Numbered from the stretch's first letter, positions 5,362 to 49,730 are shown. The stretch: DNA of 64,000 nucleotides from a virus (IMGVR_UViG_2645727901_000008), one strand, 5' to 3'. Program-made: numbers and translations. Notes: generated from the letters alone by a model not told the origin.

Positions 5362-6288
5362 TTAACTAACAATCCAGTCCATAGCAACCATATCCTCTGG
5401 CGCTAAATCAATAGCATGGATTTTCCCATCCCGGATAGTGCGCCAGTGCTTCCTTGATCCGCCTTCGGGCCATACCCATACACCTTCAGACCATGAGGCG
5501 CGACGGCATACCGTTGCATATCCACTTCTGATCTTCTCTCTGGCGGTATGCAGTGACAGATTATCTTTTGGGATTTCCGGTAAAGGATGATGGATTGCCT
5601 GAAACAGCCCCATCTTGGGATGATACCAGCGTTTGTTGCGTGGTTCTGCCTCCGACATAACCTGCTTGAAGGCTTTCTGGAAGGGGGCCAGGGCCACAAT
5701 GGAGCGTCGCGCAAGCAAACCATCTGGAGTTAAAAACTCATGCGTATCGGTGGGAATCCGGAAAGCGTTAACCAGGTTGCGACATTTGGCTTCGGTCAGG
5801 CCACATTTCGCCGCCAGCTGGCGGTAGCCAATGTAGCCTTCCGGAATATTGCCTTTCTTTATTTGCTCGAGTGTTTCAGCGACCATCGATACTTGTGCTG
5901 ATACCTCGGCTACCTGGGCATTTACGGCGTTGATCCGGCGTTCATGCTCAAGATGCATTTGCGCCATTTCAGCCAGGATTTCGGCTTTTGATTTTAACTG
6001 TACCCGGGCATTCTCCAGTTCGCGCCAGCGGTCCACCAGCCGGGCGGTGAATTCGGGAGAGAGCTGCGCGACGACGACAATACTATCGCGCTTGCCTTGC
6101 TCGCCTTCGAAGACGTAATAGCTCGCCGGGCGGCCTGCGGTGGGCTTTTCCTCAATTTGAGGAAAAGATATTACGCCCCGTTCCGCCAGGTGTTCAATGG
6201 TGCGTTTAACGTTATCAGGGCGCTTACCTACCAGTTCCGCGATCTCAATGCTGGTCATTGTCGCTTTTTGAGAGATGGACAGATTCAT
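5362..6288 (-). CDS. Rha-family phage regulatory protein (antirepressor-like) fused in frame to a C-terminal DUF2829-like module
   Basis: N-terminal region matches the Rha-like protein at 43508..44215 (SIEIAELVGKR..DNVKRTIE, VFEGEQGKRDSI, YRIPTDTHEFLTP). The last ~70 aa match the separate 66-aa gene at 43311..43511 (CRR.SW..GVW.WP...DW). Confidence 0.8.
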   Translation of the reverse strand: MNLSISQKATMTSIEIAELVGKRPDNVKRTIEHLAERGVISFPQIEEKPTAGRPASYYVFEGEQGKRDSIVVVAQLSPEFTARLVDRWRELENARVQLKSKAEILAEMAQMHLEHERRINAVNAQVAEVSAQVSMVAETLEQIKKGNIPEGYIGYRQLAAKCGLTEAKCRNLVNAFRIPTDTHEFLTPDGLLARRSIVALAPFQKAFKQVMSEAEPRNKRWYHPKMGLFQAIHHPLPEIPKDNLSLHTAREKIRSGYATVCRRASWSEGVWVWPEGGSRKHWRTIRDGKIHAIDLAPEDMVAMDWIVS

Positions 6289-6503
6289 CAGTGCGCCTCC
6301 ACGCAGTTCATCGGCAGATTCCAGTAATTGAGGATCTCCATCGCATCAAGAGTGAAGCGAGCAGCAAAAATGCAGGGTTCTTCGGGAAGGTATGAGCGCG
6401 CCTCTGCTTCGGTAGCAGCCATGACGCAGATATACAGGTGTTTTTGGCAGGAATAGAAACGCCAGATAAATTCAGAATGAGTTGGGGTAGGGATAGTAGC
6501 CAT
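6288..6503 (-). CDS. small Icd-like protein upstream of the Rha-like gene
   Basis: 71 aa; paralog of 44215..44439 (shared EFIWRF.S.QKH and AATE.EARS); AAGGAGG RBS; stop overlaps Rha start. Confidence 0.6.
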   Translation of the reverse strand: MATIPTPTHSEFIWRFYSCQKHLYICVMAATEAEARSYLPEEPCIFAARFTLDAMEILNYWNLPMNCVEAH

Positions 6504-6700
6504 ATTGGCAGCCTCCTTTGACTAAGTTAAGGAGCTACCGCGTGAGGTTCCAATCTCAATGGCGGTAGCACTGACTGGGTTGGAACTACCGGCGTCAAAG
6601 GGAACCGGCCTGCCTTTCGGCAGCCCAGCCAGCACTACCATTGATCTCTGAGCTAAACGCTACGTATGGCTGTGCGATGGCATGACACAAAAAAAGACGC
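6504..6700 (-). ncRNA. candidate c4-like antisense/leader RNA region upstream of icd-like gene (copy 1)
   Basis: Minus-strand RNA contains CCCUUUGAC (about 6594-6602) complementary to GUCAAAGGAGG covering the icd-like SD (about 6512-6522); also a UAGCUCAG tRNA-like stretch. Confidence 0.3.
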
Positions 6701-6754
6701 TTTCGGCGTCTGTGTCGCCTTTGACATTATCCGGGGTTCCAATCCCGGCACCCG

Positions 6755-6777
6755 TTTTTCTAAGGTGCCGTAGAAAT
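6755..6777. promoter_or_regulatory. TTTCTA-N8-TAGAAA palindromic operator-like element upstream of immI-like copy 1
   Basis: cgTTTTTCTAAggtgccgTAGAAATAtacc; a related inverted arrangement sits upstream of copy 2 at about 44770-44800. Confidence 0.35.
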
Positions 6778-6815
6778 ATACCCCACGATAATGCCAGGGC
6801 GCAACAGTCAGTATT

Positions 6816-6983
6816 TTATGCTTTGGCGGATTTCTTCCGGGCTTGCTTGCAGGCGTAGGCCATTGCTTTAGCTTTCACTTCATCCAGCTTCCCGGTGATC
6901 GCTTCTTTTCCGAGAGTGACAAACCAGTCATAGCAACCGCCAGTGATGTTCTGGATTTGAAAGTTGAGGTAGCGAACGGTCAT
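6816..6983 (-). CDS. small basic protein (55 aa), unknown function
   Basis: ATG preceded by GGGGG; product MTVRYLNFQIQNITGGCYDWFVTLGKEAITGKLDEVKAKAMAYACKQARKKSAKA; below track size cutoff. Confidence 0.3.
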   Translation of the reverse strand: MTVRYLNFQIQNITGGCYDWFVTLGKEAITGKLDEVKAKAMAYACKQARKKSAKA

Positions 6984-7302
6984 TTTGACACCCCCAGCGC
7001 GAGTAAAGAATGCAGATTATCGCGTGAGTGGCGGACAACGAGTGATGGGAAAAGACAGTAGCTGTTCATAGTGTAGTGACTCCTTGCTTTCGGAGCCGCC
7101 ATCGACTGTTCCACGGTCTGGTGGCGGCGCAATAAAGGCTGGAACACCGTGAGTCAACGGGGGCTTTTCAGCCACCTATATTGCACCGCCATAGGTATAG
7201 CGGCGGCAATAATACGAAAAACTAAACAGTTTGTCTCAAAAAGTTGACCGGTGTGCCAATCGGTAGTGAATGTACATCGGAGAAATTTACAATTCAACTT
7301 AA

Positions 7303-29508: not shown

Positions 29509-29584
29509 TGGTGGCCCCTACCGGACTTGAACCGGTGACCGTGCGATTATGAGTCGCCAGCTCTAACCACTGAGCTAAAGGGCC
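29509..29584 (-). tRNA. tRNA with CAU anticodon (Ile2/lysidine-type, or Met)
   Basis: 76 nt with encoded CCA; sequence is very close to E. coli tRNA-Ile2 (ileX) as recalled. Confidence 0.85.
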
Positions 29585-29594
29585 AATTAGTGTT

Positions 29595-29708
29595 TTATTT
29601 TCGACGCCTGAGATTCTTCGCGACTTGTTCTACGCCGTATACGATCACAAGTAGAAACAGCAAAAACCATCCAGGGTTCTTATCGATATACGTCCAAAAA
29701 TCCATCAT
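29595..29708 (-). CDS. micro membrane protein (37 aa)
   Basis: MMDFWTYIDKNPGWFLLFLLVIVYGVEQVAKNLRRRK; start overlaps upstream stop (ATGA); below track cutoff. Confidence 0.3.
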   Translation of the reverse strand: MMDFWTYIDKNPGWFLLFLLVIVYGVEQVAKNLRRRK

Positions 29709-29869
29709 GAGTTCCTGAACGCACCTTCAATAATCGGCAATAGCAATACCACAGCTACTGAAACTAATGCCCCATCAGCCAACACCGACATCACTTTGCT
29801 GGTGAAATCCACCAGTACGGACAAAACGAGAAAGCCAATGGCGCCCGCAATACGCGCCTTGCCAATCAT
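29705..29869 (-). CDS. small membrane protein (54 aa)
   Basis: MIGKARIAGAIGFLVLSVLVDF...; start overlaps the TerB-like stop (TAATG). Confidence 0.35.
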   Translation of the reverse strand: MIGKARIAGAIGFLVLSVLVDFTSKVMSVLADGALVSVAVVLLLPIIEGAFRNS

Positions 29870-30324
29870 TACAGATAATCTTCCACACGAAGGCCAAGAC
29901 GGCGACCAACCTCTTCCAGAACCTTATGCTCCGCAGGTTCGATTTCACCATCTGCTTCAGCGATCGTGAGCATGTTCACGAAGACTTCTTCCGCTTCTTT
30001 GGGATCGTTTTTGATATCTTCAATTTCGCGGAGGATATTCATGCGACCAACACGGAAACCAGCTTCCAGTTGCTCAGTAAAACGGGTGATTGTTGCGGTA
30101 ATTTCGTTGCCAAAATGACTTAAGCGAGGATTAGAGCGGACAAGCTGATCAAGTTTCGCTGTTTCTTCCTTTTCGATTTCACCATCTGCGGCAGACACCA
30201 GCAAACAGCCACCGATGATGGCCTCCATCAGATCGCGATTCTCAACCCTTTTCAGCTCTACTTTTGCTGAAGCGACTTTCTTACCGAAAAATTTACCGAA
30301 CATTGGTTTTCCCTCAATAAACAT
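29869..30324 (-). CDS. TerB-like protein (tellurite-resistance TerB fold)
   Basis: Two AADGEIE/AEADGEIE repeats typical of TerB-like domains. Confidence 0.65.
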   Translation of the reverse strand: MFIEGKPMFGKFFGKKVASAKVELKRVENRDLMEAIIGGCLLVSAADGEIEKEETAKLDQLVRSNPRLSHFGNEITATITRFTEQLEAGFRVGRMNILREIEDIKNDPKEAEEVFVNMLTIAEADGEIEPAEHKVLEEVGRRLGLRVEDYL

Positions 30325-30570
30325 GACGTATTTATTAGGTTGCGGTGCCTGGTGCCTCCAGGTGACGTTAACCAGTTAACAATTAACGCCGGGATTTTTG
30401 TCTTCACAATTAAGGAGGATTGTTTTAACTGTTCCGCGTGCGCTTAGCCGCATTCACCGCAATGGTAAGAGCACTTGGCTGGCTGGGCGGCGATGACGCC
30501 TGTACGCATTTGGTGAACCGGTTCTGCTTCCGGCATTCGCTTAATTAGCCAAATACTCTTAACGTTGCAC

Positions 30571-30657
30571 TGGCGGAGAGTAATGGAATCGAACCATCAT
30601 CGCTTGCGCAATGGGACGGTTTTCAAGACCGCTTGAGCACCATGCTCCCTACTCTCC
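30571..30657 (-). tRNA. class II tRNA, anticodon UGA (Ser-like), atypical short D-arm
   Basis: Perfect 7-bp acceptor stem plus CCA; anticodon loop CUUGAAA; long variable arm; T-loop TTCGATT. Confidence 0.55.
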
Positions 30658-30794
30658 CGTTATTGTGGCGACCGGTGCTGATCTCCGGCTTGCGGTTATT
30701 TCAGACTCTCACGGGCGTTTAATTGCCCCGCCGAACAGCTCTTTTCCGCAATAGCTGCAATGTCTTTCGCGCATCAGCCTGCGCATTCACCACA

Positions 30795-30878
30795 ATGTTG
30801 AGAACACTGGTTGTCACGCTGCAACGCAACATTTATTCGTAGATTGGGATATGACCCCGTTACGCCAGTGTTCTCAAC
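30795..30878. repeat. 13-bp perfect inverted repeat pair (TTGAGAACACTGG / CCAGTGTTCTCAA) with about 58-nt spacer
   Basis: Lies between tRNA genes in noncoding sequence. Confidence 0.4.
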
Positions 30879-31028
30879 GTTGTAGTGCCGGTTACGGTTC
30901 CGGCCAGGCCTCTTCCTCAACGGGTTGTTCTCCATACGGACTACCGTTTATTGGTCGTTCCTGCGGTTTATGTTGTGAAGCCAGATGCTTATCTTCTGGT
31001 TGCTTCAAAGAGCTGCACTTCATCACAA

Positions 31029-31100
31029 CGGTAAGGGTACTTCGTAGGGATTCGAACCCTCTGCCAAGCACGGCGATCTCCGACGTCGCAAAATACCCTT
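31029..31100 (-). other. tRNA-like structured element or tRNA remnant
   Basis: Contains a GGTTCGAATCC T-arm-like segment enclosed by a perfect 10-bp inverted repeat (GGTAAGGGTA / TACCCTTACC); no canonical D-arm. Confidence 0.25.
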
Positions 31101-31111
31101 ACCTGTTGCGT

Positions 31112-31187
31112 TGGTGCCGATTAACGGGATCGAACCGCTGACCATTCGCTTACAAAGCGACTGCTCTACCAACTGAGCTAAACCGGC
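31112..31187 (-). tRNA. tRNA-Thr (anticodon UGU)
   Basis: 76 nt; canonical cloverleaf; anticodon loop TTTGTAA; T-loop GGTTCGATCC; CCA encoded. Confidence 0.85.
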
Positions 31188-31191
31188 AATT

Positions 31192-31278
31192 TGGTGGGGA
31201 GTGATGGAGTCGAACCACCCGAGTCGCAATGACAGTAGATTTACAGTCTACCCCGCTACCCCTACGGACTAACTCCCC
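31192..31278 (-). tRNA. tRNA-Tyr (anticodon GUA), class II
   Basis: 87 nt; acceptor GGGGAGT/ACTCCCC; anticodon loop CTGTAAA; long variable arm. Confidence 0.8.
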
Positions 31279-31283
31279 TAAAG

Positions 31284-31360
31284 TGGCGATGGTGGGTGGA
31301 TTCGAACCACCGACCGACAGCTTAGAAGGCTGCTGCTCTATCCTACTGAGCTACACCATC
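31284..31360 (-). tRNA. tRNA-Arg (anticodon UCU)
   Basis: 77 nt; anticodon loop CTTCTAA; T-loop GGTTCGAATCC; CCA encoded. Confidence 0.8.
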
Positions 31361-35801: not shown

Positions 35802-38800
35802 TTAGGCCGCATCGGCGATTATTTTACGCAATTCATCTACCGAGTAACGCGTAGATACCATCCATGCAGGACGGTCAAAGTTCACATCAGCAACCGGGTT
35901 TGCTTCAAAATTCCAGAAACGCCCGCCAATCTTCTTAATCGCGTCTTTGGCGTTCCGTATTGTCGAGGAACCAGGTTGGTCGGCAATGAGATAAACCGCA
36001 CCGACGTCCTCGCTGACACTCCACCAGCGCCCGCGAACACGCGCCTTAGCGCGAATCGGCTTATCATTAACCACAATGATATAGTCATCATTCGCCGCTT
36101 CATCAGCTCTGGCTTCAGCCACTGCCGCCTGCTCTTCTCTTTTGCTTTCAGCCTGTTCAAGCCTTTCCGCGATCTCTGATTCGGTGGCCCCGCCGTTTTT
36201 CAGCGATACATAGTCTTGCCACGTTGCTGATTTGAGCGCATCCGGCAACTCATTCACATAGTCACCGTCTTTCAACTCACGGGCGCGGCGGGTAGCCATT
36301 TCTACCAGGCGATTAACAGAAACAGCATCAGCAAAATCGTCCTTACTAATGTGTTTTTCATCAAATGCATTGATGACAGCCCCCACCTTAATCCACTGCG
36401 CTGCTGGCGAATCCAGAGGATTATCGGCCTGAACAATGGCTAATTTCGCTCCATCGACACCATTATTAGCCAGCTGCTCCAATGCCGACCAGCCATCGGC
36501 ATCGCTGAGTGATTTATATTGCTCAAACAATGCATCGCGCCAGGCCACCAGCGCAGCTCGTGTTTTCTCAATTTTCGCCGTAATTTTCGCGGCCTTCACC
36601 TGATTAAACATCCGTTCAATGTCATCAGTGTTGCTAAAGGCTTTCATCCTGCCCTGGAATAAACGGTATGCCACCACGGTCTTCCAGAAAGATTCCAGCC
36701 CTTCTCCGGACGGTTTACGGAACAGGCTAAGAATATCTTCAGAAGTAACTTTATTAAGTGAGCGACCGGACAAACCACGCCCTGCCATCCAGTTTTCAAA
36801 CTCCTGGGAAACATCATCCATCGTGGCCTGTGACCCCCATGCCTGCATTCCCTGGATGTAATCATATCCATACAATGCCTGGAGGAATCCCTCGCCGTCC
36901 ACGACATTCAGCGGGTTATCACTGGCTTGTATTTTTGCCACTTCACGCTTCAGCGCCTCATCGTTGCCATCAGGGTAAATCCACCGCTCAGGCGCTATAT
37001 CCGATGCTCGCCCGATTTTTTGACCTATTACGCCATCATAAGCCGATGACAGTGCAATCTGACCATCATCGGTGCGATAAGCCCAGTATTTAATAGCTGA
37101 ACCACCGCCCCATACTCTACTAGGCTTCCCGGCAGTGACATTCATTACCCCATTGCGAATAGCATCATAGAACTGATCGCGCGTAAGTGTTGTTGATAGC
37201 TGGTGGCATTGAACACCACGTGCAGCTGTTTCACGCGATTCTGCAACTCCCTCTTCAAAGGTTACCGATTCAATTATCAGGTTAAAGGGCAAAAATAATG
37301 CCGTCCCCGGAGAACGAGAGTAACGACTAGCCACATCCAGCCAGGATATGCGGCACGTACACCCGCCCCTTTCCGCATCAATGGCGGTAACACGAACAAT
37401 TGCTGTCGTATTGTGATTCTCATCGATGATCGCGCGATAATGGCTGCCCTTGTGCAACAAGATATTTTTCTCAGTGCGTACATACTCCTGTGGGTTCTGC
37501 AATACATCGGCATCAAGCTCCAGAACCCCGGCTTTAATCGCACGTTCCAGATCACCACGAGAACGTTTCATAACGGTGTCAGCGTCTTTAGCTCTGGTGA
37601 TCGCAAAGCGTAGCTCCCGCACACGTTTTCTGTAGTCTCGCAACTGTTCCAGAACATATTTCTGCCCGTTCCTGTTCGTCCCCGCTTTAATCAGGTCGTC
37701 AAGATTGCGCTGGTAATGCTCTACCTGCTCCATCGCGCTTTTCAGTTCTGTCTCCATCATGCCGATATCTTTCCCGGCAGCATTCGCCGCTTTCAGGTAG
37801 TTATCGAGAGCATTATTGGCTTCGCGTAGGGCTTTCAGTTTCAGACGTTCTTCACGCTCTTGCGCCTGACGACTCATGATTGCACGGCGTTCTTCCGGAT
37901 TTGCCGCCAGCATAATGGCGCGTTCATCTGCGTCATCCGCATCACCATTGGCGATCTCTGACATGTCGGAGGTCATCACCATATTGATCCAGTCCTTCTT
38001 ACGTTTCAGCGTATCCAGACGGAAGTCATCAAATGTGCCTTTGCCACAATAGTAGTGAACATTGACCTTTTCTTGTGGTGAGCCTACCCGAGCGCCGCGC
38101 CCATTACGTTGGTCGATACTGGCAGGAGTCCAGGGTAGTGTCAGATGGTGGATATCGGTTGTCCCGATGTGCAAGTTAATACCTACTTCAGCCTTCTTGT
38201 TACAGATTATGATGCGCGTGCGACCTTCGTTATAGTCGGCGGCAATACCTTCCATGCCCTCAAGGCCAGCATCATTTTTAGCTGAGAGATAATCCTCATA
38301 TTGGGCAAGTTTGCTGTAGTAGGTTTCCCATGCACCTTCTTTGTATTCACCGTTTTTATTTGGCGTAGGTTCAGTCGGCTTATTCACCTTCTTCAGCTTG
38401 ACGCCGCCAGCCTGGCTAACTGTCGTCGCATTGATAATGCCTATCTCCTGCTCCGGCATTTGCAGTGCACTGGCAATAATACGGCGCAGCTTCTGGTGCT
38501 GGGCTTTTTCATCAATGAAGACGATTTGTTTACCGTTCTTCAGACCTTCACGAAGGTTTTCGATCAGCGCGGCATACTTCGGCGGGATGGGGTGTGATAC
38601 CTGCTGCATATCAATACCGGCAGCCGCAATGGCCTTCAGTATTTCAGCTTCCAGTTCAATGCCAGCACGTATTTCAACATGCGACGGATGTTCGCTAAAG
38701 GTGGTCTTCACTACCTTGCTGGCACGCGTACTGACCAGCCCACCAGCGCCATCTTCTTCGGCCTCGTCTACATCATCTGCCACTTTACCGCCAGCTACTT

Positions 38801-41800
38801 TTGGCAGGGCATCAGCAATAGCTTTTACCTTGTCTGCAAGCTCAACGGGGAACTGGAATGTAATCGCACTGGCATACAGATCAGGATCTATAGCAACCTT
38901 ATCCATGTCGCGGATGATGGAGAAGATGAAATCATCCGGTTTTTCGTTTGTGATATGCCCGTTTTCATCGACCGTCAGCGCATCTTTACTACTTAACTCC
39001 TGTGCACGCTTACGAAGTTCTTCGTAAATGGCCTCTTGCTCTCCTGTCATCGGGATCTGCAAGGTATTCTCGACAATATCAGGGATTTTTACCGTCGCCC
39101 CGACGTCCGCAGCAGTCTTCAGAGTAGTCCAGCGATGGAAAATACCACGCAGACCATCCAGGTTCTGGAAGCCCACCAGTCCCTGCTTCTCTTCCACCTC
39201 ACCGGAAATTTTCTGAACCTGAACTGTGGCTGTTTTACCGAACACGCGAACGAAATCATCCGGCGTAACAATACCCATGCGCATCCACTCTTCCTGCGGA
39301 ATGACAGTAGACAGCATGTTGAAAGCATCAATCGGGCTGTTCACCAGCGGTGTTGCCGTCAGCATAACCACACCACGCCCGTTGTTGCGTTTCATCATGT
39401 ACGCAGCTTTTACAGCCATGTCGCGGGCCATTTTGGATACTGCCGGGTTAGGCAAATATGCCAGTTGCCCCGCTTCGCGCCCGGCGCTAAAGGAGTTGCG
39501 GTAGTTATGCCCTTCGTCGGCAATTACGCTATCGAAGTTCATATCCTCAAAGTACGGGATATTCTGCTTCTTCGTTGTACCGGTATTTGCGGCCTGGTCC
39601 TTAATCTTGTTCTTCTTCTGCGCGTCACGGTGTTTGCCAGATGCCAGGTCAAGACGCCCCATTTCCACAGCATTAAAGACCGCTTGCTGTGAGTTTTCCT
39701 CAATGGTTTCTTCTCGTAGCGGGATAGACGCGAATTGCTCTTTTGTCATGATGACCGTTCGCCAATTTGACGACGGGATCATGTTCATGCGCTGAACGAT
39801 AACGGCGCTGGCGGACTCTTTCACAACATTTCTGGTAAGAGCCTGCCCGTTACTGTCGAGGCGTGGTTCGCCATTTTCATCAAGCACCGGCGCGGTCAGA
39901 ATATTTCCGCTGTCATCACGAACTTCATCCAAACCGATAAACATCATATTGGCGAAGGCATCAGAACTGTAGAAACTCTGTGCCTCGTGATACCAGTTCT
40001 GATAAACCGCCTTCGGAACAACAATACACGTGCGTTTAGTGCGACCTGTTTCGAAGTTATACGCCTCAAGCGCAAGCGCGGTCGTGGTTTTACCCAGCCC
40101 GGTGCCAAATCCCATGATGCCGCGCCCATCTTCTGATAAGCGACGAACTTCTTCATTCTGATAAGTCAGAGGAATGCGCTTCCCACTAATCCCCTCCAGG
40201 CCAAGCGGTGCGTCAGAATGCGTAAACGGGATGAAGCCATTAAATGCGTCGTTATAGTCGCGGGCTATCTGATCAGCCTGCGGGTGAGTGCGTAACCAGT
40301 CGTTGAAGCTAATTTCCAGTTGAGCAATCTTATCCAGGTACTCGTTAGCGTTCTGCCCACGCGGTTTAATGCCGTTCAGGTAGTTTTCTAACTGGTTCAG
40401 GAAGCCGTCTTTATTGTTGGCCTTCTTGAACTCATTCCCGTTTTTGCCGTTTACGGTTCGTAGTTGATAGCCAGTAAATACCCCGTCCTTACCTTCGTAA
40501 TCGTCCGGAGATACCAGAATGCCGTCCTCAACCTTAAGGTCGGGTTCTGTATACTTAAACTCGTCATAGCCCTGCTCTGCCAGGAACTCTTTTATCAAGC
40601 GGCGATCCAGCCAGCGGGCGTTCAGATTAACGGTGACTTTATTTAGTGGCGTGAAAATGCGTTTCTCTTCGATTTTCGCCAACTGACGCTCAAAGTTCGC
40701 TTTCTGCTCACCTGTTGACGCATCACGCCAGCCCACCAGCAATGCTGTTTTGGTTGCAATATCGCCGCTGGTGGCGCGGTCCATCGGCAGCAGGCAGCCA
40801 TACCCATCAATAGCGATATCATCAAATTTCGCCAGGTATTCCAGAGCAGCATCGTCGTCTCCTGGCAGTTCGCCAGCAAACGCCTCACGAAAATCGTCCA
40901 GTGTGATTGGATTAAGTGCCACGTCACTGAAAAGGTGGGTTACAACTTGTTCCGGGCGTGTAAAGTCAATACCGGCAGCACCATCCGTTACATCAAGTCG
41001 TCCAGCAAGGAGGTCAGAAGCAGAGCCGTCCTGTTTCACGTTGCCAGTGAAAGTCATCCAGTTTTTAGCGCCAGCTTCAGCAATCCCATTCAGCTTAATC
41101 GCGTGCGGCGGACCATACTTCGCAATTTCGGCTTCCGCCAGGCGCGCGGCATCAGCAAGTACATCATCAACATTTTCCCCCAGATTACGCTTATCAAGCG
41201 CCTTGTTGATCAACTGCCCTATCAGTGCGCCGCGCATAACGCGTTCTCTGTCTTTTTCTCTCTGCTTGCCAGCAAAGCGAATCATTGCCGCTACTTCATC
41301 ACTGATAACCGATGGATAGTCGGACGCGATCGCCGATATCTGGTCCCATGACAACGCCAGAATGCCATTTGTTGACTGAAACGCGATCTGCAGATCACCA
41401 AACGTCGTAACACCATATCGATTTACATCAAGCGCGGAGGATTTGGTTGTCGCGTCCTTGACCCATTTCAGACCATCAAACTCATGCCAGATGCCGCCTA
41501 CAAGGCGTTTATCGCCCACTTTCGCGCCCTGCCATGCCTGAGTAGTTACGCCAAGCAAATCCCAATTAATGCGGCTTTCAAAGCGGCGCGATAGAGCGGT
41601 TTTCATCGACTCATTGGATACACGACCGTCCTTTTTCACCACCAGGGTATTGCGGAAGCTGGTACGCTCCATATCGCCGTAAACAAATCGCTTCCCTTCG
41701 GTTGTAAACCATTTTCCTTTGAGGAAGGTATCCCAAAGGACGTTTGCCGATTTGAGCGTTGCATCATCCGTGTCGGGGATCATCTCCAGGAAGGTTTCCG

Positions 41801-42641
41801 GGTGTTTACGCAATACCCATACGTCCACCACGGTATCTGTACCGGATTCGCTGAACGTACCAGAAGGCATACGATGTGCGCCCAAAAATTCCGCTTTACG
41901 GCTGACTTTATCGCGCAATTTTTTGTATTTCGTACCATCGGTCATGCCATTCGGCACCACCAATACAATTAGTCCACCAGGTTTAACCTTGTCGATCGTG
42001 CGCAACACAAAGTAATTGCCAACGTTCTTCTCGTTTGCATATGCCGGATCAAGCCCGGCAACGCCGGAACGCCCTTCACCAAACGGTACGTTACCAACAG
42101 CGTGGTCATACATTGCGTCTTTCGCCGCCAGCGCCTCAAACGCCCCGATATTCACATCGTCTTCCGGGTGCAAAAGCTGGTTTATTCGACCGGAAATCGG
42201 AGACAGTTCGGCGCTGGTCATTATCATGCCCTGCCGTTTTGTCTCCTGGAAAATACCTGTGCCCGCTGATGGTTCCAGTACGTGCCCACCATCAATACCG
42301 TAGTCAGCAAACAGATCCCATATACCTTCAGCCATAAACTGTGGCGTGTAGTATTCGTATTGGCTGCCCTCACCATCTGTCAGGCCGCCTTCACCGGTAT
42401 ACCCGGCAAGAATCTGACGTTGTTCGTCAGTTAATTTCGCCCCATCGAAGCCGGGCGGAAGGGAATTAAGAAGATTTACTGCGGCATTGTTTGCTGCCCG
42501 GCGTGTTTTCTGAATACTGACGCCATCGGCTTTCCTGACGCCAAAGGTCGCAACAGCACGTAATTTATGCAACCGACTAACAATTTCAATCAGTTCGCCT
42601 AAGCTGGAGGCTTCACTGATTGAATGAAGTAGTTTGTCCAA
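35802..42641 (-). CDS. darB: giant DarB-like protein: N-terminal SAM-dependent DNA methyltransferase domain plus SF2 (DExH) helicase domain
   Basis: 2279 aa; MTase motif I VLEPSAGTGIF and NVPFG; helicase Walker A GFGTGLGKTT, motif II VIADEGHNYRN, motif VI RNGRGARVG; size and architecture match P1 DarB. Confidence 0.8.
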   Translation of the reverse strand: MDKLLHSISEASSLGELIEIVSRLHKLRAVATFGVRKADGVSIQKTRRAANNAAVNLLNSLPPGFDGAKLTDEQRQILAGYTGEGGLTDGEGSQYEYYTPQFMAEGIWDLFADYGIDGGHVLEPSAGTGIFQETKRQGMIMTSAELSPISGRINQLLHPEDDVNIGAFEALAAKDAMYDHAVGNVPFGEGRSGVAGLDPAYANEKNVGNYFVLRTIDKVKPGGLIVLVVPNGMTDGTKYKKLRDKVSRKAEFLGAHRMPSGTFSESGTDTVVDVWVLRKHPETFLEMIPDTDDATLKSANVLWDTFLKGKWFTTEGKRFVYGDMERTSFRNTLVVKKDGRVSNESMKTALSRRFESRINWDLLGVTTQAWQGAKVGDKRLVGGIWHEFDGLKWVKDATTKSSALDVNRYGVTTFGDLQIAFQSTNGILALSWDQISAIASDYPSVISDEVAAMIRFAGKQREKDRERVMRGALIGQLINKALDKRNLGENVDDVLADAARLAEAEIAKYGPPHAIKLNGIAEAGAKNWMTFTGNVKQDGSASDLLAGRLDVTDGAAGIDFTRPEQVVTHLFSDVALNPITLDDFREAFAGELPGDDDAALEYLAKFDDIAIDGYGCLLPMDRATSGDIATKTALLVGWRDASTGEQKANFERQLAKIEEKRIFTPLNKVTVNLNARWLDRRLIKEFLAEQGYDEFKYTEPDLKVEDGILVSPDDYEGKDGVFTGYQLRTVNGKNGNEFKKANNKDGFLNQLENYLNGIKPRGQNANEYLDKIAQLEISFNDWLRTHPQADQIARDYNDAFNGFIPFTHSDAPLGLEGISGKRIPLTYQNEEVRRLSEDGRGIMGFGTGLGKTTTALALEAYNFETGRTKRTCIVVPKAVYQNWYHEAQSFYSSDAFANMMFIGLDEVRDDSGNILTAPVLDENGEPRLDSNGQALTRNVVKESASAVIVQRMNMIPSSNWRTVIMTKEQFASIPLREETIEENSQQAVFNAVEMGRLDLASGKHRDAQKKNKIKDQAANTGTTKKQNIPYFEDMNFDSVIADEGHNYRNSFSAGREAGQLAYLPNPAVSKMARDMAVKAAYMMKRNNGRGVVMLTATPLVNSPIDAFNMLSTVIPQEEWMRMGIVTPDDFVRVFGKTATVQVQKISGEVEEKQGLVGFQNLDGLRGIFHRWTTLKTAADVGATVKIPDIVENTLQIPMTGEQEAIYEELRKRAQELSSKDALTVDENGHITNEKPDDFIFSIIRDMDKVAIDPDLYASAITFQFPVELADKVKAIADALPKVAGGKVADDVDEAEEDGAGGLVSTRASKVVKTTFSEHPSHVEIRAGIELEAEILKAIAAAGIDMQQVSHPIPPKYAALIENLREGLKNGKQIVFIDEKAQHQKLRRIIASALQMPEQEIGIINATTVSQAGGVKLKKVNKPTEPTPNKNGEYKEGAWETYYSKLAQYEDYLSAKNDAGLEGMEGIAADYNEGRTRIIICNKKAEVGINLHIGTTDIHHLTLPWTPASIDQRNGRGARVGSPQEKVNVHYYCGKGTFDDFRLDTLKRKKDWINMVMTSDMSEIANGDADDADERAIMLAANPEERRAIMSRQAQEREERLKLKALREANNALDNYLKAANAAGKDIGMMETELKSAMEQVEHYQRNLDDLIKAGTNRNGQKYVLEQLRDYRKRVRELRFAITRAKDADTVMKRSRGDLERAIKAGVLELDADVLQNPQEYVRTEKNILLHKGSHYRAIIDENHNTTAIVRVTAIDAERGGCTCRISWLDVASRYSRSPGTALFLPFNLIIESVTFEEGVAESRETAARGVQCHQLSTTLTRDQFYDAIRNGVMNVTAGKPSRVWGGGSAIKYWAYRTDDGQIALSSAYDGVIGQKIGRASDIAPERWIYPDGNDEALKREVAKIQASDNPLNVVDGEGFLQALYGYDYIQGMQAWGSQATMDDVSQEFENWMAGRGLSGRSLNKVTSEDILSLFRKPSGEGLESFWKTVVAYRLFQGRMKAFSNTDDIERMFNQVKAAKITAKIEKTRAALVAWRDALFEQYKSLSDADGWSALEQLANNGVDGAKLAIVQADNPLDSPAAQWIKVGAVINAFDEKHISKDDFADAVSVNRLVEMATRRARELKDGDYVNELPDALKSATWQDYVSLKNGGATESEIAERLEQAESKREEQAAVAEARADEAANDDYIIVVNDKPIRAKARVRGRWWSVSEDVGAVYLIADQPGSSTIRNAKDAIKKIGGRFWNFEANPVADVNFDRPAWMVSTRYSVDELRKIIADAA

Positions 42642-42792: not shown

Positions 42793-43278
42793 ATGGCAAA
42801 CATTGAACCTCGCTGGCTAATTGAAGCCCGTAAGCACATTGGCCTGACTGAAATAAAAGGCGCTAAACACAACCCTGAAATCGTTCAGTTCTGGCGCGAC
42901 ATCAAGCGCGGCGGAATTAAAGACGATGAAACGCCGTGGTGCGCAGCATTTGTCGGTGCAATGCTGGAACGTGTAGGCATCCGCTCAACAAGATTTGAGT
43001 CGGCAAAATCCTATCTGGATTGGGGCGAGAAATTAGATACACCGGCATACGGATGTATCGTTGTATTTACCCGCGTAGGCGGTGGGCACGTAGGCTTCGT
43101 TGTCGGACGCCGTGCCAATGGCGATCTGCTTGTCCTGGGTGGGAACCAGGGGGATGCTGTTAATATTCGCGCATTCCCAACATCAAGAGTGTCTGGCTAT
43201 CGCTGGCCTGCTGGCGAACCACGCAATACCGCTCTGTTACCAGTCGGAGACGCAGCAACCTCAACTAATGAGGCATGA
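42793..43278 (+). CDS. cell-wall hydrolase-like protein (CHAP / NlpC-P60-like, TIGR02594-type)
   Basis: Cys...His pattern (ETPWCAAFVGA ... GGGHVGFVV); GGAG-type RBS. Confidence 0.55.
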   Translation: MANIEPRWLIEARKHIGLTEIKGAKHNPEIVQFWRDIKRGGIKDDETPWCAAFVGAMLERVGIRSTRFESAKSYLDWGEKLDTPAYGCIVVFTRVGGGHVGFVVGRRANGDLLVLGGNQGDAVNIRAFPTSRVSGYRWPAGEPRNTALLPVGDAATSTNEA

Positions 43279-43310: not shown

Positions 43311-43511
43311 TCAATTCACGATCCAATCATTACCGACTATATCAGCCGTCGATAAATCAACTTCCCGGATCTGGAGTCCATTAATACAAAACCATCCGGT
43401 AGTAGAGTAATTATCAGGCCAGGCCCATACACCAACACTCCATGCTTTACGGCGGCACACTTCAGCCTGTCCTTCCCTGATTTTTTTTACCGCCTGCATG
43501 ATGTCCATCAC
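43311..43511 (-). CDS. DUF2829-like small protein
   Basis: 66 aa; start overlaps the Rha stop (ATGA); CRRKAWSVGVWAWP...GNDWIV. Confidence 0.6.
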   Translation of the reverse strand: MMDIMQAVKKIREGQAEVCRRKAWSVGVWAWPDNYSTTGWFCINGLQIREVDLSTADIVGNDWIVN

Positions 43512-44215
43512 TCACCTCCCCAACCGATCACCTGGAATTGCCCCATTTTGGGGTGATACCAGCGTTTTCCTCGGTGTTCAGCCTCCGACATCATCCGGTT
43601 AAAAGCATTCATGAAGGGAGATAAGGCCACGATGGAACGACGCGACAATACCCCCTCTGGAGTTAAAAACTCATGTGTATCGGTGGGGATCCGGTAAGCG
43701 TTAACCAGGTTGCGACATTTGGCTTCGGTCAGGCCGCATTTTGCCGCCAGCTGGCGGTAGCCAATGTAACCTTCCGGCATGTTGCCCTTCTTGATTTGCT
43801 CGACGGTTTCTACCACCTGGCTAACCTTTGACTCAACAACATGAAGCCGCTTTTGCTGCTGAACTGCATTTGCAGCCATTGCGGCGATCATCTCTATTTC
43901 GGTCAACGGCTGGCGTGCTTGTTCTTCCAGTTCGCGCCAGCGGTCCACCAGCCGGGCGGTGAATTCGGGAGAGAGCTGCGCGACGACGATAATGCTATCG
44001 CGCTTGCCTTGCTCGCCTTCGAAGACGTAAGCCTCAACACTACGTCGTAGTCCTAAGTTATTGATTTTTTCGAAAACCTCAATTTGAGGACGAACAATAA
44101 CGCCACCTTTGTCTAATGTCTCAATAGTGCGTTTCACATTGTCATGACGTTTTCCCACCAGCTCCGCGATCTCAATGCTGGTCATTGATGGCTTTTCGAG
44201 AATGCAGATATCCAT
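43508..44215 (-). CDS. Rha-family phage regulatory protein (antirepressor-like), copy 2
   Basis: 235 aa; shares segments of 90-98% nucleotide identity with 5362..6288. Confidence 0.8.
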   Translation of the reverse strand: MDICILEKPSMTSIEIAELVGKRHDNVKRTIETLDKGGVIVRPQIEVFEKINNLGLRRSVEAYVFEGEQGKRDSIIVVAQLSPEFTARLVDRWRELEEQARQPLTEIEMIAAMAANAVQQQKRLHVVESKVSQVVETVEQIKKGNMPEGYIGYRQLAAKCGLTEAKCRNLVNAYRIPTDTHEFLTPEGVLSRRSIVALSPFMNAFNRMMSEAEHRGKRWYHPKMGQFQVIGWGGE

Positions 44216-44439
44216 CAGTGAGCCTCCGCAATGCCGGGATTGGTAATATTGCGATACCAGGGATTGGTGTTTGGTTGTGGGGAAGTGGAGAAACGACCAG
44301 TGAGAACGCCATACTGATCAGGGATCAGAGAACGGGCTTCTTTTTCAGTTGCGGCAATTGCGAAGTGATCGCAGTGTTTTTGCAGGGAGTGAAAACGCCA
44401 GATGAATTCTGGACGTGAGCAAGGATTGGCATTAACCAT
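44215..44439 (-). CDS. small Icd-like protein, copy 2
   Basis: 74 aa; paralog of 6288..6503; stop overlaps Rha start. Confidence 0.6.
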   Translation of the reverse strand: MVNANPCSRPEFIWRFHSLQKHCDHFAIAATEKEARSLIPDQYGVLTGRFSTSPQPNTNPWYRNITNPGIAEAH

Positions 44440-44570
44440 AGTTACGGCCTCACTAACAGGTTTAACAACCTGCTACCCGCTGCTAAACAGGTGGCAGGAC
44501 GTGACGGGGTTAGCAGACTGGCGTTAGTGAAACCAGCAGGCCGAAGCCTCCCCATCACGCCCCACCATAA
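44440..44570 (-). ncRNA. candidate c4-like antisense/leader RNA region (copy 2)
   Basis: Minus-strand RNA has UUCACUAAC (about 44523-44531) complementary to GUUAGUGAGG spanning the icd-like SD (about 44448-44457), and CUGCUAACC pairing with GUUUAGCAG. Confidence 0.3.
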
Positions 44571-44785
44571 TTTGGGCGTAACGCGGTTTTACGGACACAA
44601 AAATACCGCAATATCGGATATCTGCGGTTGTCCGCACTAACATTCAGGCTGCTAAACCCGGTCGCAGAATTTGCTACGACGACATGAATATAAGCCTGAA
44701 AACATGGAAGATCAACTAAAAATTTCAGCAATAGATGACTTCAGTCGATGATGCAGATCATACATTCCGATTTAGAAACGGCAAA

Positions 44786-49172: not shown

Positions 49173-49730
49173 CTAATCTGGATCAACAATAAGTTGTGAA
49201 ACCTTCGCTGCAAGTCTTATATAGCGTTCAGCTTCATTTCTGGTGATTTCAAAATCCAGAAAGTGCGCGGCTTCATTTCTTAGCGAGCGAAGCCGTTTTA
49301 ACAGCAAAGCAGCGGAATCTTCAAGTTTTCCTTCTTGAATCAACCAGTCAATGAATAGTTCTGGATTCCGTTTCGGCTTTAACCCTCCCTGTATAAAACC
49401 AGAGCGCCCGGCAGCCTCCTCTACCATCAACCATGACTCCATAATAGCAGCTCTAGGTGAAAAATCAGCAATTCTCTCTAATTGTGCGATTTTATTTATA
49501 TATTCAGAGTTATTATTACCATTGTTAATATTTTTATTCCCAACTGATGCATCTGTTGCTAATACTTCTGCTGCGGTTAGTCCCGCATTAAACTCAGCTT
49601 CAGCTGCTCCAATCTTGAATCTACTCAGACGTACTATTAACTCCTTAATATCAACCCCATACTTATTAACAAACCACACAAACACCAATGGCCATGCAAG
49701 AGCTGAAACCAAATCTGTAAATGATGACAT
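49173..49730 (-). CDS. membrane-anchored protein with HEPN-like R-x4-H motif
   Basis: N-terminal TM helix (LVSALAWPLVFVWFV); C-terminal LRSLRNEAAHF fits the HEPN Rx4-6H signature; AT-rich gene. Confidence 0.55.
   Translation of the reverse strand: MSSFTDLVSALAWPLVFVWFVNKYGVDIKELIVRLSRFKIGAAEAEFNAGLTAAEVLATDASVGNKNINNGNNNSEYINKIAQLERIADFSPRAAIMESWLMVEEAAGRSGFIQGGLKPKRNPELFIDWLIQEGKLEDSAALLLKRLRSLRNEAAHFLDFEITRNEAERYIRLAAKVSQLIVDPD

Follow-up and report, generated by a model that had tools for sequence, protein, structure and literature searches.

The 64,000-nucleotide (nt) viral sequence IMGVR_UViG_2645727901_000008, referred to here at its full length as the window, contains two complete immI-type modules on its minus strand, each built around a gene for a c4 antisense RNA. 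Judged by its sequence, the window is a D6-like (P1-related) plasmid prophage, and at both loci it is 95–96% identical to Escherichia phage D6. Each site is a typical member of the P1/P7 c4 antisense RNA family, which targets the ribosome-binding site (RBS) of an operon composed of icd and an anti-repressor gene. We estimate a probability of about 0.9 that both modules are P1-type c4 immunity switches, which silence icd and the anti-repressor. The two switches of this prophage differ in specificity, and pairing energies predict that they do not cross-react. The family, the mechanism and the specificity principle have been known since 1990, and the present finding re-identifies a known system; the C4 family of Rfam was published in 2010 (PMC2864571), and a second region homologous to c4/icd has already been published for a D6-like plasmid (PMC6799933).

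At Rfam gathering thresholds, the whole window yields two matches to C4 (RF01695), one to isrK (RF01394) and one to c4-a1b1 (RF03163), all on the minus strand. Both copies share one layout, which consists of an upstream a1/b1 element, the c4 gene with its boxes a′ and b′, the downstream boxes a2 and b2, the latter on the Shine–Dalgarno (SD) sequence, an Icd homologue and a Rha-type anti-repressor gene (Table 1). The stop codon of icd and the start codon of the anti-repressor gene share one base (UGAUG) in both copies. A first-pass annotation of this DNA had proposed a c4-like antisense element aimed at the icd-like RBS in each copy. The strings it quoted are all present in both copies, on the minus strand, and the proposal is borne out by the Rfam C4 matches, an identity of approximately 91% to P1/P7, the fold and the covariation. 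Its further observation, that the sequences differ between the copies while the SD-targeting arrangement of P1 c4/icd/ant is kept, also holds. The interval it assigned to copy 1, 6504–6700, encloses c4, a2 and b2, but the unit reaches 6768, and a1/b1 lie outside. The second pair it noted for copy 2 is present (44516–44508 with 44488–44480, 7-bp core), whereas the a′/a2 pair of copy 1 and the a1/b1 elements of both copies had been overlooked.

Fold and complementarity of the two c4 RNAs

The minimum free energy (MFE) and centroid predictions agree on the fold of both c4 RNAs: a long closing stem encloses a pair of hairpins; b′ is carried by the loop of hairpin 2, and a′ occupies the single-stranded joint on the 3′ side of that hairpin. 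The calculated MFE is −46.5 kcal/mol for copy 1 and −45.4 kcal/mol for copy 2, with z values against shuffles of −5.0 and −5.3, respectively. Structure prediction and covariance analysis across homologues, which the first-pass annotation had suggested as checks, give a c4 fold with z of about −5 and boxes that covary.

In copy 1, b′ and b2 form a perfect Watson–Crick match of 8 base pairs (bp), CCUUUGAC with GUCAAAGG, and the second pair joins a′ GUUCCAA to UUGGAAC within a2. The b2 region, GUCAAAGGAGG, includes the SD sequence GGAGG, 8 nt ahead of the icd AUG at 6503. In copy 2, UUCACUAAC and GUUAGUGAGG form 8 Watson–Crick bp, or 10 bp with two G–U pairs across GAGG, and CUGCUAACC and GUUUAGCAG form 7 Watson–Crick bp (CUGCUAA with UUAGCAG). 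When restricted to the loops, the duplex energies amount to −21.5 and −26.3 kcal/mol for the cognate pairs and −9.5 and −12.7 kcal/mol for the cross pairs within the window; thus, the two modules are predicted to be orthogonal. Only loop-restricted energies were used, since the kissing pairing is pseudoknotted, full-length duplexfold forces unrealistic pairing and whole-molecule RNAcofold is uninformative.

Short sequences in a G+C-balanced leader could be complementary by chance. The pairings comprise only 7–8 bp each, single 7–8-mers recur elsewhere in the window, and a b′–RBS match of at least the observed length arises in 21 (copy 1) and 51 (copy 2) of 5000 dinucleotide shuffles of the leaders. 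However, a1, b1, a2 and b2 occur all together in none of the 5000 shuffles for either copy, and their positions are fixed and the boxes covary in more than 100 leaders. The probability of chance complementarity is therefore negligible, and the covariation data rule it out.

Covariation and the two-box code

The strongest evidence for the c4 reading is covariation. The copy 1 region of the window is 97% identical to that of D6 over 345 nt, and most of the differences fall in the six boxes, where the changes compensate one another at all three places. The window has GUUCCAA/UUGGAAC as its a boxes and D6 has GUCUCAA/UUGAGAC, and the b boxes read CCUUUGAC/GUCAAAGG and CCUUUUGC/GCAAAAGG, respectively. 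For copy 2, a four-way alignment with D6, P1 and P7 from a1 onward likewise places the differences mainly in the six boxes, and they are compensatory. Here, the window combines the a boxes of P7 (CUGCUAA/UUAGCAG) with the b boxes of P1 (CACUAAC/GUUAGUG), and D6 combines the a boxes of P1 (CUGUCAA) with a third b type (CGUAAGU).

To extend the comparison, 104 IMG/VR loci were gathered via the two Icd proteins of the window. They contain 14 box combinations, and in 13 of these a′ matches a1 and a2, and b′ matches b1 and b2. The distance of b2 from the AUG is −18 to −21 in all 14 Icd-linked types, and a2 lies at −46 to −50, except for two types at −56, in which the best-scoring match is shifted. 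The a and b alleles reassort, with all four of four possible combinations found in the copy 1 family and six of eight in the P1 family.

Formal covariation counts were made on 46 leaders, 33 of the copy 1 type and 13 of the P1 type. In the copy-1-type leaders, 99.6% of the cells are paired, compared with 27–49% when the partner is slid, and 20 pairs change on both sides. In the P1-type leaders, 100% of the cells are paired, and six of the seven b′–b2 pairs are compensatory. Over both leader sets the slid-partner control gives 27–54% paired, and the observed covariation score is reached in none of 500 shuffles of either set. Among these relatives the b′–b2 helix is 98.8–100% paired and the a′–a2 helix 100%, with compensatory changes, and the upstream pairings of a1/b1 with a′/b′ are 98–100% paired and covary in both sets. 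The c4 stems of the copy 1 family also show compensatory changes, affecting 8 of the 16 pairs in the closing stem and 4 of the 5 in hairpin 1; those of the P1 type are invariant except for one G–U/G–C pair.

A scan with one a1 box yields 66 further unique leaders that share a single a box and carry 23 b types. Both b1 and b2 pair with b′ over 7 bp or more in 62 of these 66, and for most of the b types b2 ends about 8 nt ahead of an AUG. Lastly, 11 D6-like contigs have both modules, in varied allele combinations.

Comparison with P1, P7 and D6

The P1 record annotates a 77-nt c4 RNA, the sites a1, b1, a2 and b2, promoters and icd, and describes the function as 'repression of icd ant translation'. 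The c4 RNA binds its target around the RBS and blocks translation (PMC12197685), and the heteroimmunity of P1 and P7 rests on small differences in the boxes (PMC12197685; PMC6906374). The modules of the window resemble P1/P7 immI in the order of promoter, a1, b1, c4, a2, b2/SD, icd and an overlapping downstream gene, in the RNA fold and in the position of b2 on the icd SD. The resemblance is closest for copy 2, in which the c4–icd stretch is approximately 91% identical, and c4 is equal save for four a′/b′ bases. The Icd proteins of the window are 61–63% identical to that of P1.

There are also distinct differences. The downstream protein of the window is of Rha type (phrog_63), without detectable similarity to P1 Ant1/2. 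The window lacks kilA between ant and repL. A search for the consensus of the P1 C1 operator, ATTGCTCTAATAAATTT, with up to three mismatches, gives no match in the 64-kb window; thus, any control of these promoters by a lytic repressor must use a different operator. Copy 2 mixes the alleles of P7 and P1 as described above, and the element has a second, divergent module, copy 1. In D6 and D6-like plasmid prophages (e.g. pYU39_89) both modules are found at the same positions, with 95–96% identity. Compared with D6, however, the boxes of the window differ at all four places, a and b of copy 1 and a and b of copy 2, and the targets have changed to match. The D6 record annotates neither RNA.

On the P1 model, each module would be transcribed into one leader-plus-operon RNA that contains a1/b1, c4, a2, b2/SD, icd and the Rha-type anti-repressor. 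The c4 part would presumably be cut out as a stable RNA of about 77–80 nt. In P1, the 77-nt c4 RNA is reportedly processed from the operon transcript, and c4 is said to be a substrate of RNase P. The sequence features needed for such processing are visible in the window, where GCCA (copy 1) or GCCACC (copy 2) comes after the closing stem. Alignment to the annotated P1 and P7 c4 places the 77-nt RNA of copy 2 at 44566–44490, and by analogy with P1 the mature RNA of copy 1 probably covers about 6639–6560. The exposed a′ and b′ would bind the a2 and b2 boxes of leaders of their own kind, either in trans or in cis. Since b2 overlaps the SD sequence, ribosomes could not start icd, and since the anti-repressor start overlaps the icd stop, the anti-repressor would also stay off. 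The corresponding shut-off in P1 is attributed to lost coupling and polarity; blocked icd translation is said to shut off ant via polarity. In this way, the prophage may silence its own anti-repressors and those of an incoming phage with the same boxes, which would amount to superinfection immunity. The sequence of the two boxes would set the specificity, and with unrelated boxes the two modules would act independently.

The IsrK-family RNA upstream of copy 1

The a1/b1 element of copy 1 belongs to the isrK family. It folds into the three-hairpin shape with a terminator, and the terminator scan places an intrinsic terminator directly after b1 (6711–6695 plus U7, to 6688). Both target boxes are present as perfect copies in the predicted terminated IsrK-like RNA (6768–6690). 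At each copy-1-type locus tested, an isrK match lies 25–45 nt upstream of the C4 match. The loci with this isrK–C4 pair include a lambdoid Stx1a phage and the second module of the P1-like RCS47; the adjacency is recorded at the loci L084 (1246–1334), L109 (1502–1690) and L110 (2502–2712), the last of which is from RCS47. In L084, the isrK and c4-a1b1 matches overlap. The two Rfam names, isrK and c4-a1b1, stand for models of a single kind of element, and isrK is placed outside the Rfam clan CL00128.

At the IsrK/STnc1160/orf45–anrP locus of Gifsy-1, the IsrK terminator is read through, and IsrK pairs with downstream RNA in an inactive cis structure; the short IsrK activates in trans, and a processed species of ~80 nt is complementary to IsrK (PMC4825925). 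Copy 1 resembles this locus in several respects. Its upstream element is an isrK with three hairpins and a terminator, with a c4-type RNA and an anti-repressor operon coming after it, and in both systems IsrK is complementary to the RNA downstream, which in Gifsy-1 is the processed species. The cis fold of copy 1 also resembles the published 'structure A' (PMC4825925). The differences are that the window has icd between c4 and the anti-repressor, as in P1, with b2 covering the icd SD, and that the published work describes activation by IsrK (PMC4825925).

We compared Gifsy-1 by its published positions. The pairs G28:C162 and G31:C159 fit a1:a′ in the near-identical isrK of L084, and the two starts of orf45, AUG107 and AUG119, agree with AUGGUGGGCUGUAUGGGG in the 5′ strand of c4. 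Both the orf45 starts and the ~80-nt STnc1160 of Gifsy-1 appear to fall on a c4-type RNA. A contig scan with GGTGCCGGGN9CCCGG, aimed at Gifsy-1 and further isrK loci, produced nothing but chance matches in genomes of high G+C content. The Gifsy-1 IsrK paper (PMC4825925) does not mention c4, icd or P1, and we did not find a link between IsrK and c4 stated there or in a 2025 review (PMC12197685).

These likenesses suggest, tentatively and at somewhat less than even odds, that copy 1 is a three-part RNA switch. The IsrK-like RNA would be the a1/b1 half of the c4 system and act as a decoy, which titrates c4 and turns on icd and the anti-repressor. IsrK activation, orf45 and STnc1160 in Gifsy-1, together with the RefSeq 'ash family protein', would then represent the same pair, and the two-box code, with a and b alleles that reassort freely, would equip D6-like plasmids with two independent, addressable circuits of anti-repression. 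The proposed decoy role of the short RNA is the sole part of the findings with some novelty, and by analogy with Gifsy-1 (PMC4825925) the IsrK-like RNA of copy 1 may be a short, Hfq-binding trans activator. If the link between IsrK and c4 holds, two literatures merge in a simple model, with a decoy RNA working against an antisense RNA while the prophage is being induced.

The same region has been read as a gene for a small protein, 'ash family protein' or Gifsy-1 'orf45', which would make the complementarity incidental. In RefSeq plasmids identical to the window, the Prokaryotic Genome Annotation Pipeline (PGAP) places a 39-aa coding sequence (CDS) at exactly 6641–6522 (-), on the copy 1 c4 gene (49534–49653 of NZ_CP061103.1), and in Gifsy-1 mutation of the orf45 start lowers downstream expression (PMC4825925). 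However, mutating that AUG also disrupts the closing stem of c4. Among the 46 leaders, the open reading frame (ORF) starting from the AUGG conserved in the 5′ strand of c4 ranges in length from 14 to 47 aa. The specificity loop determines where it stops; with CACUAAC, the b′ of the P1 type, an in-frame UAA follows after 14 codons. This variable length and the dependence of the stop on the loop make a conserved protein unlikely. The ORF has no NCBIfam match, and its substitutions compensate at the RNA level and do not follow codons. We consider this explanation very improbable and, on the spread of ORF lengths among the relatives, reject a protein-coding reading of the c4 region.

Objections and alternative readings

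Several points weigh against P1-type c4 switches in the two modules. First, the contiguous Watson–Crick pairings are short, 8 bp plus 7 bp per copy. Second, one of the 14 box combinations breaks the pattern: at L037 (1251–1503), a1 is UUGAGAC while a′/a2 are GUUCCAA/UUGGAAC, so that a1 mismatches its own c4, probably as the result of recombination within the leader. Third, the terminator between a1/b1 and c4 of copy 1 means that c4 needs either read-through or another promoter. Fourth, when the entire copy 1 leader (6768–6495) is folded, the MFE structure has a1/b1 paired with a′/b′ in cis and the c4 fold is abolished; thus, the unprocessed RNA may differ in behaviour from the processed RNA. 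Fifth, the Rha-type proteins are unlike Ant1/2 and there is no P1-type C1 operator, so the circuit around c4 differs from that of P1. Finally, the case for the switch is built on sequence and predicted structure.

The cis fold raises the question of whether the boxes act only within the unprocessed leader, where alternative structures would hide or expose the icd RBS with no small RNA acting in trans. The full-length copy 1 leader does form such a long cis structure, and at the homologous isrK locus of Gifsy-1, mutations and native gels have demonstrated translationally inactive and active conformers in cis (PMC4825925). On the other side, the same study reports the ~80-nt processed species downstream of IsrK and the trans effect of IsrK. 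Furthermore, the full copy 2 leader retains the c4 fold in its MFE structure, and the c4 of copy 2 is the P1/P7 c4 over 77 nt except for the four box bases, a stretch that P1 annotates as a discrete 77-nt RNA. The c4 fold is also strongly backed by the covariation of its own stems. Action in cis and action in trans are not mutually exclusive, and we regard action in cis alone as improbable.

A second alternative takes its output from satellite phage P4. The CI RNA of P4 is related to c4: the copy 1 c4 region is 72.6% identical to the P4 cI region, and in P4 the RNA is processed from the leader of the operon that it controls, as presumed for c4, with complementary sites upstream and downstream (seqA/seqC). 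Premature termination is the reported effect of P4 CI (PMC4825925), while the downstream site in the window lies on the RBS, as in P1. In the window, a c4/CI-type RNA would pair with a1/b1, as with seqA, on the nascent RNA and cause termination after b1. The strong intrinsic terminator immediately after b1 of copy 1 suits this model, and the IsrK authors point to the same analogy (PMC4825925). The model leaves two features unexplained, namely the covariation of b2 with b′ and the position of b2 on the SD, at −18 to −21 from the AUG across the 14 Icd-linked types and about 8 nt ahead of the AUG in most of the other leaders. In addition, constitutive STnc1160 did not lower the IsrK effect in Gifsy-1 (PMC4825925). 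We judge P4-like termination to be quite improbable as the main output; at most, it is an added autoregulatory layer on a P1-type c4 switch.

Features of the two modules

The coordinates of both modules are listed in Table 1. The copy 1 promoter is placed such that it would start the IsrK-like RNA at G6768, a position taken relative to the start of the isrK model. Its −35 element is weak, and a consensus scan did not flag it. The copy 2 promoter aligns with the annotated P1 promoter P1c4 (formerly P51b), and the copy 2 boxes a2 and b2 align with the misc_binding sites annotated under these names in P1. After b1 of copy 2, a weak hairpin rich in A/U and followed by a U-run can be read from the sequence (44627–44599); the terminator scan made no call at this hairpin, and the MFE fold forms it only partly.

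Table 1. Elements of the two c4 modules; positions are counted from the first nucleotide of the window.
Feature	Copy	Position	Strand	Details
Putative sigma-70 promoter	1	6775..6804	-	-35 UUGCGC 6804-6799, 18-nt spacer, -10 UAUAUU 6780-6775; read from sequence
Upstream a1/b1 element, IsrK-family RNA	1	6690..6768	-	Rfam isrK RF01394 62.7 bits (gathering 50)
a1 AUUGGAACC	1	6743-6735	-	Inside IsrK-family element
b1 GUCAAAGG	1	6725-6718	-	Inside IsrK-family element
c4 antisense RNA gene	1	6558..6645	-	Rfam C4 RF01695 77.1 bits (gathering 45), full model 1-87
b′ CCCUUUGAC	1	6602-6594	-	Loop of c4 hairpin 2
a′ GUUCCAA	1	6586-6580	-	Single-stranded joint of c4
Target region, icd leader	1	6512..6554	-	a2 AUUGGAACC 6554-6546; b2 GUCAAAGG overlapping SD GGAGG, 6522-6512
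icd-like gene, 71 aa	1	6288..6503	-	63% identity to P1 Icd
Rha-type anti-repressor gene, 308 aa	1	5362..6288	-	phrog_63 'anti-repressor Ant', E 2e-62
Promoter	2	44687..44715	-	-35 UUGAUC, 17-nt spacer, -10 UAUAUU; promoter scan
Upstream a1/b1 element	2	44599..44693	-	Rfam c4-a1b1 RF03163 51.5 bits (gathering 46.7) at 44693-44641
a1 UUUAGCAG	2	44656-44649	-	Aligns with annotated P1 a1
b1 GUUAGUG	2	44641-44635	-	Aligns with annotated P1 b1
c4 antisense RNA gene	2	44487..44572	-	Rfam C4 70 bits (gathering 45), full model 1-87
b′ UUCACUAAC	2	44531-44523	-	
a′ CUGCUAACC	2	44516-44508	-	
Target region	2	44448..44488	-	a2 GUUUAGCAG 44488-44480; b2 GUUAGUGAGG 44457-44448 covering SD
icd-like gene, 74 aa	2	44215..44439	-	AUG at 44439; 61% identity to P1 Icd
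Rha-type anti-repressor gene, 235 aa	2	43508..44215	-	Pfam Phage_pRha 36.8 bits (cutoff 29.9); phrog_63

Pfam has no Icd model; therefore, membership of the Icd family was set by NCBIfam, PHROGs and BLASTP against P1 Icd. Both proteins match NCBIfam NF033153 (phage_ICD_like; cutoff 25), with 49.5 bits for copy 1, which also belongs to phrog_1426, and 40 bits for copy 2. The anti-repressors of the two copies are 67% identical to each other, and that of copy 1 scores 29.6 bits against Pfam Phage_pRha, slightly below the cutoff. The longer protein of copy 1 corresponds to that of copy 2 plus a C-terminal part, which matches a separate 66-aa ORF (phrog_7385) downstream of copy 2 at 43311–43511 (-). 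The difference between the anti-repressors of the two modules is a gene fusion or split.

The first-pass annotation had also ascribed a tRNA-like feature to UAGCUCAG of copy 1 (6655–6648). This string is located outside c4, 3 nt ahead of position 6645, where the C4 model begins; it reads UAGCUCCA in D6, and in relatives it is variable or missing together with its segment. ARAGORN finds no tRNA in 6300–7000, and Rfam gives no tRNA match there. The tRNA-like reading of this string is rejected, as it is outside c4, is not conserved and lacks ARAGORN or Rfam support. Any tRNA-likeness of c4 lies in the long closing stem, which is followed by GCCA in copy 1 and GCCACC in copy 2. The string is part of a 21–22-nt segment at about 6646–6668 (-), between the IsrK-type terminator and c4, that is found in only one subgroup of copy-1-type leaders and is cleanly missing in L009, L036 and L084.

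Distribution, annotation and neighbouring genes

Among 5426 complete E. coli genomes, 423 are matched by the copy 1 leader and 537 by the copy 2 leader. An identity of 99% or more to the copy 2 leader is seen in only three complete E. coli records, so the hybrid allele with P7 a and P1 b boxes appears uncommon. Elements of this kind, identical or nearly so, are otherwise widespread, and there is little new in the finding as stated. Its use lies partly in annotation. The RefSeq plasmids identical to the window carry no non-coding RNA feature at the c4 gene of copy 1, where the 'ash family protein' CDS stands, and no feature at all at that of copy 2. The c4 RNA genes, unannotated in D6 and miscalled or featureless in the RefSeq plasmids, could be corrected in annotation pipelines. 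In addition, the six boxes can be read as a code, for which many reassorting alleles exist in nature and which could predict exclusion among P1-like and D6-like phage-plasmids, many of which carry resistance genes.

Second modules of the isrK–c4–anti-repressor kind are also seen in some true P1-like phages. In RCS47 (L110) the module is at 103405–103819, between pacB and c1, with no annotation under the match, and in phage JL22 it is at 96407–96821, where a 'hypothetical protein' is annotated. Two-module immunity is thus not confined to D6-like elements.

Three other features were recorded in the window. Four tRNA genes are clustered on the minus strand within 29512–31360 (29512–29584, 31115–31187, 31195–31278 and 31287–31360). 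A 2279-aa ORF at 35802–42641 (-) is the counterpart of the DarB-like helicase/methyltransferase of D6. Lastly, a gene for a 161-aa protein of the TIGR02594 family (peptidoglycan hydrolase-like), at 42793–43278 (+), adjoins the copy 2 module.

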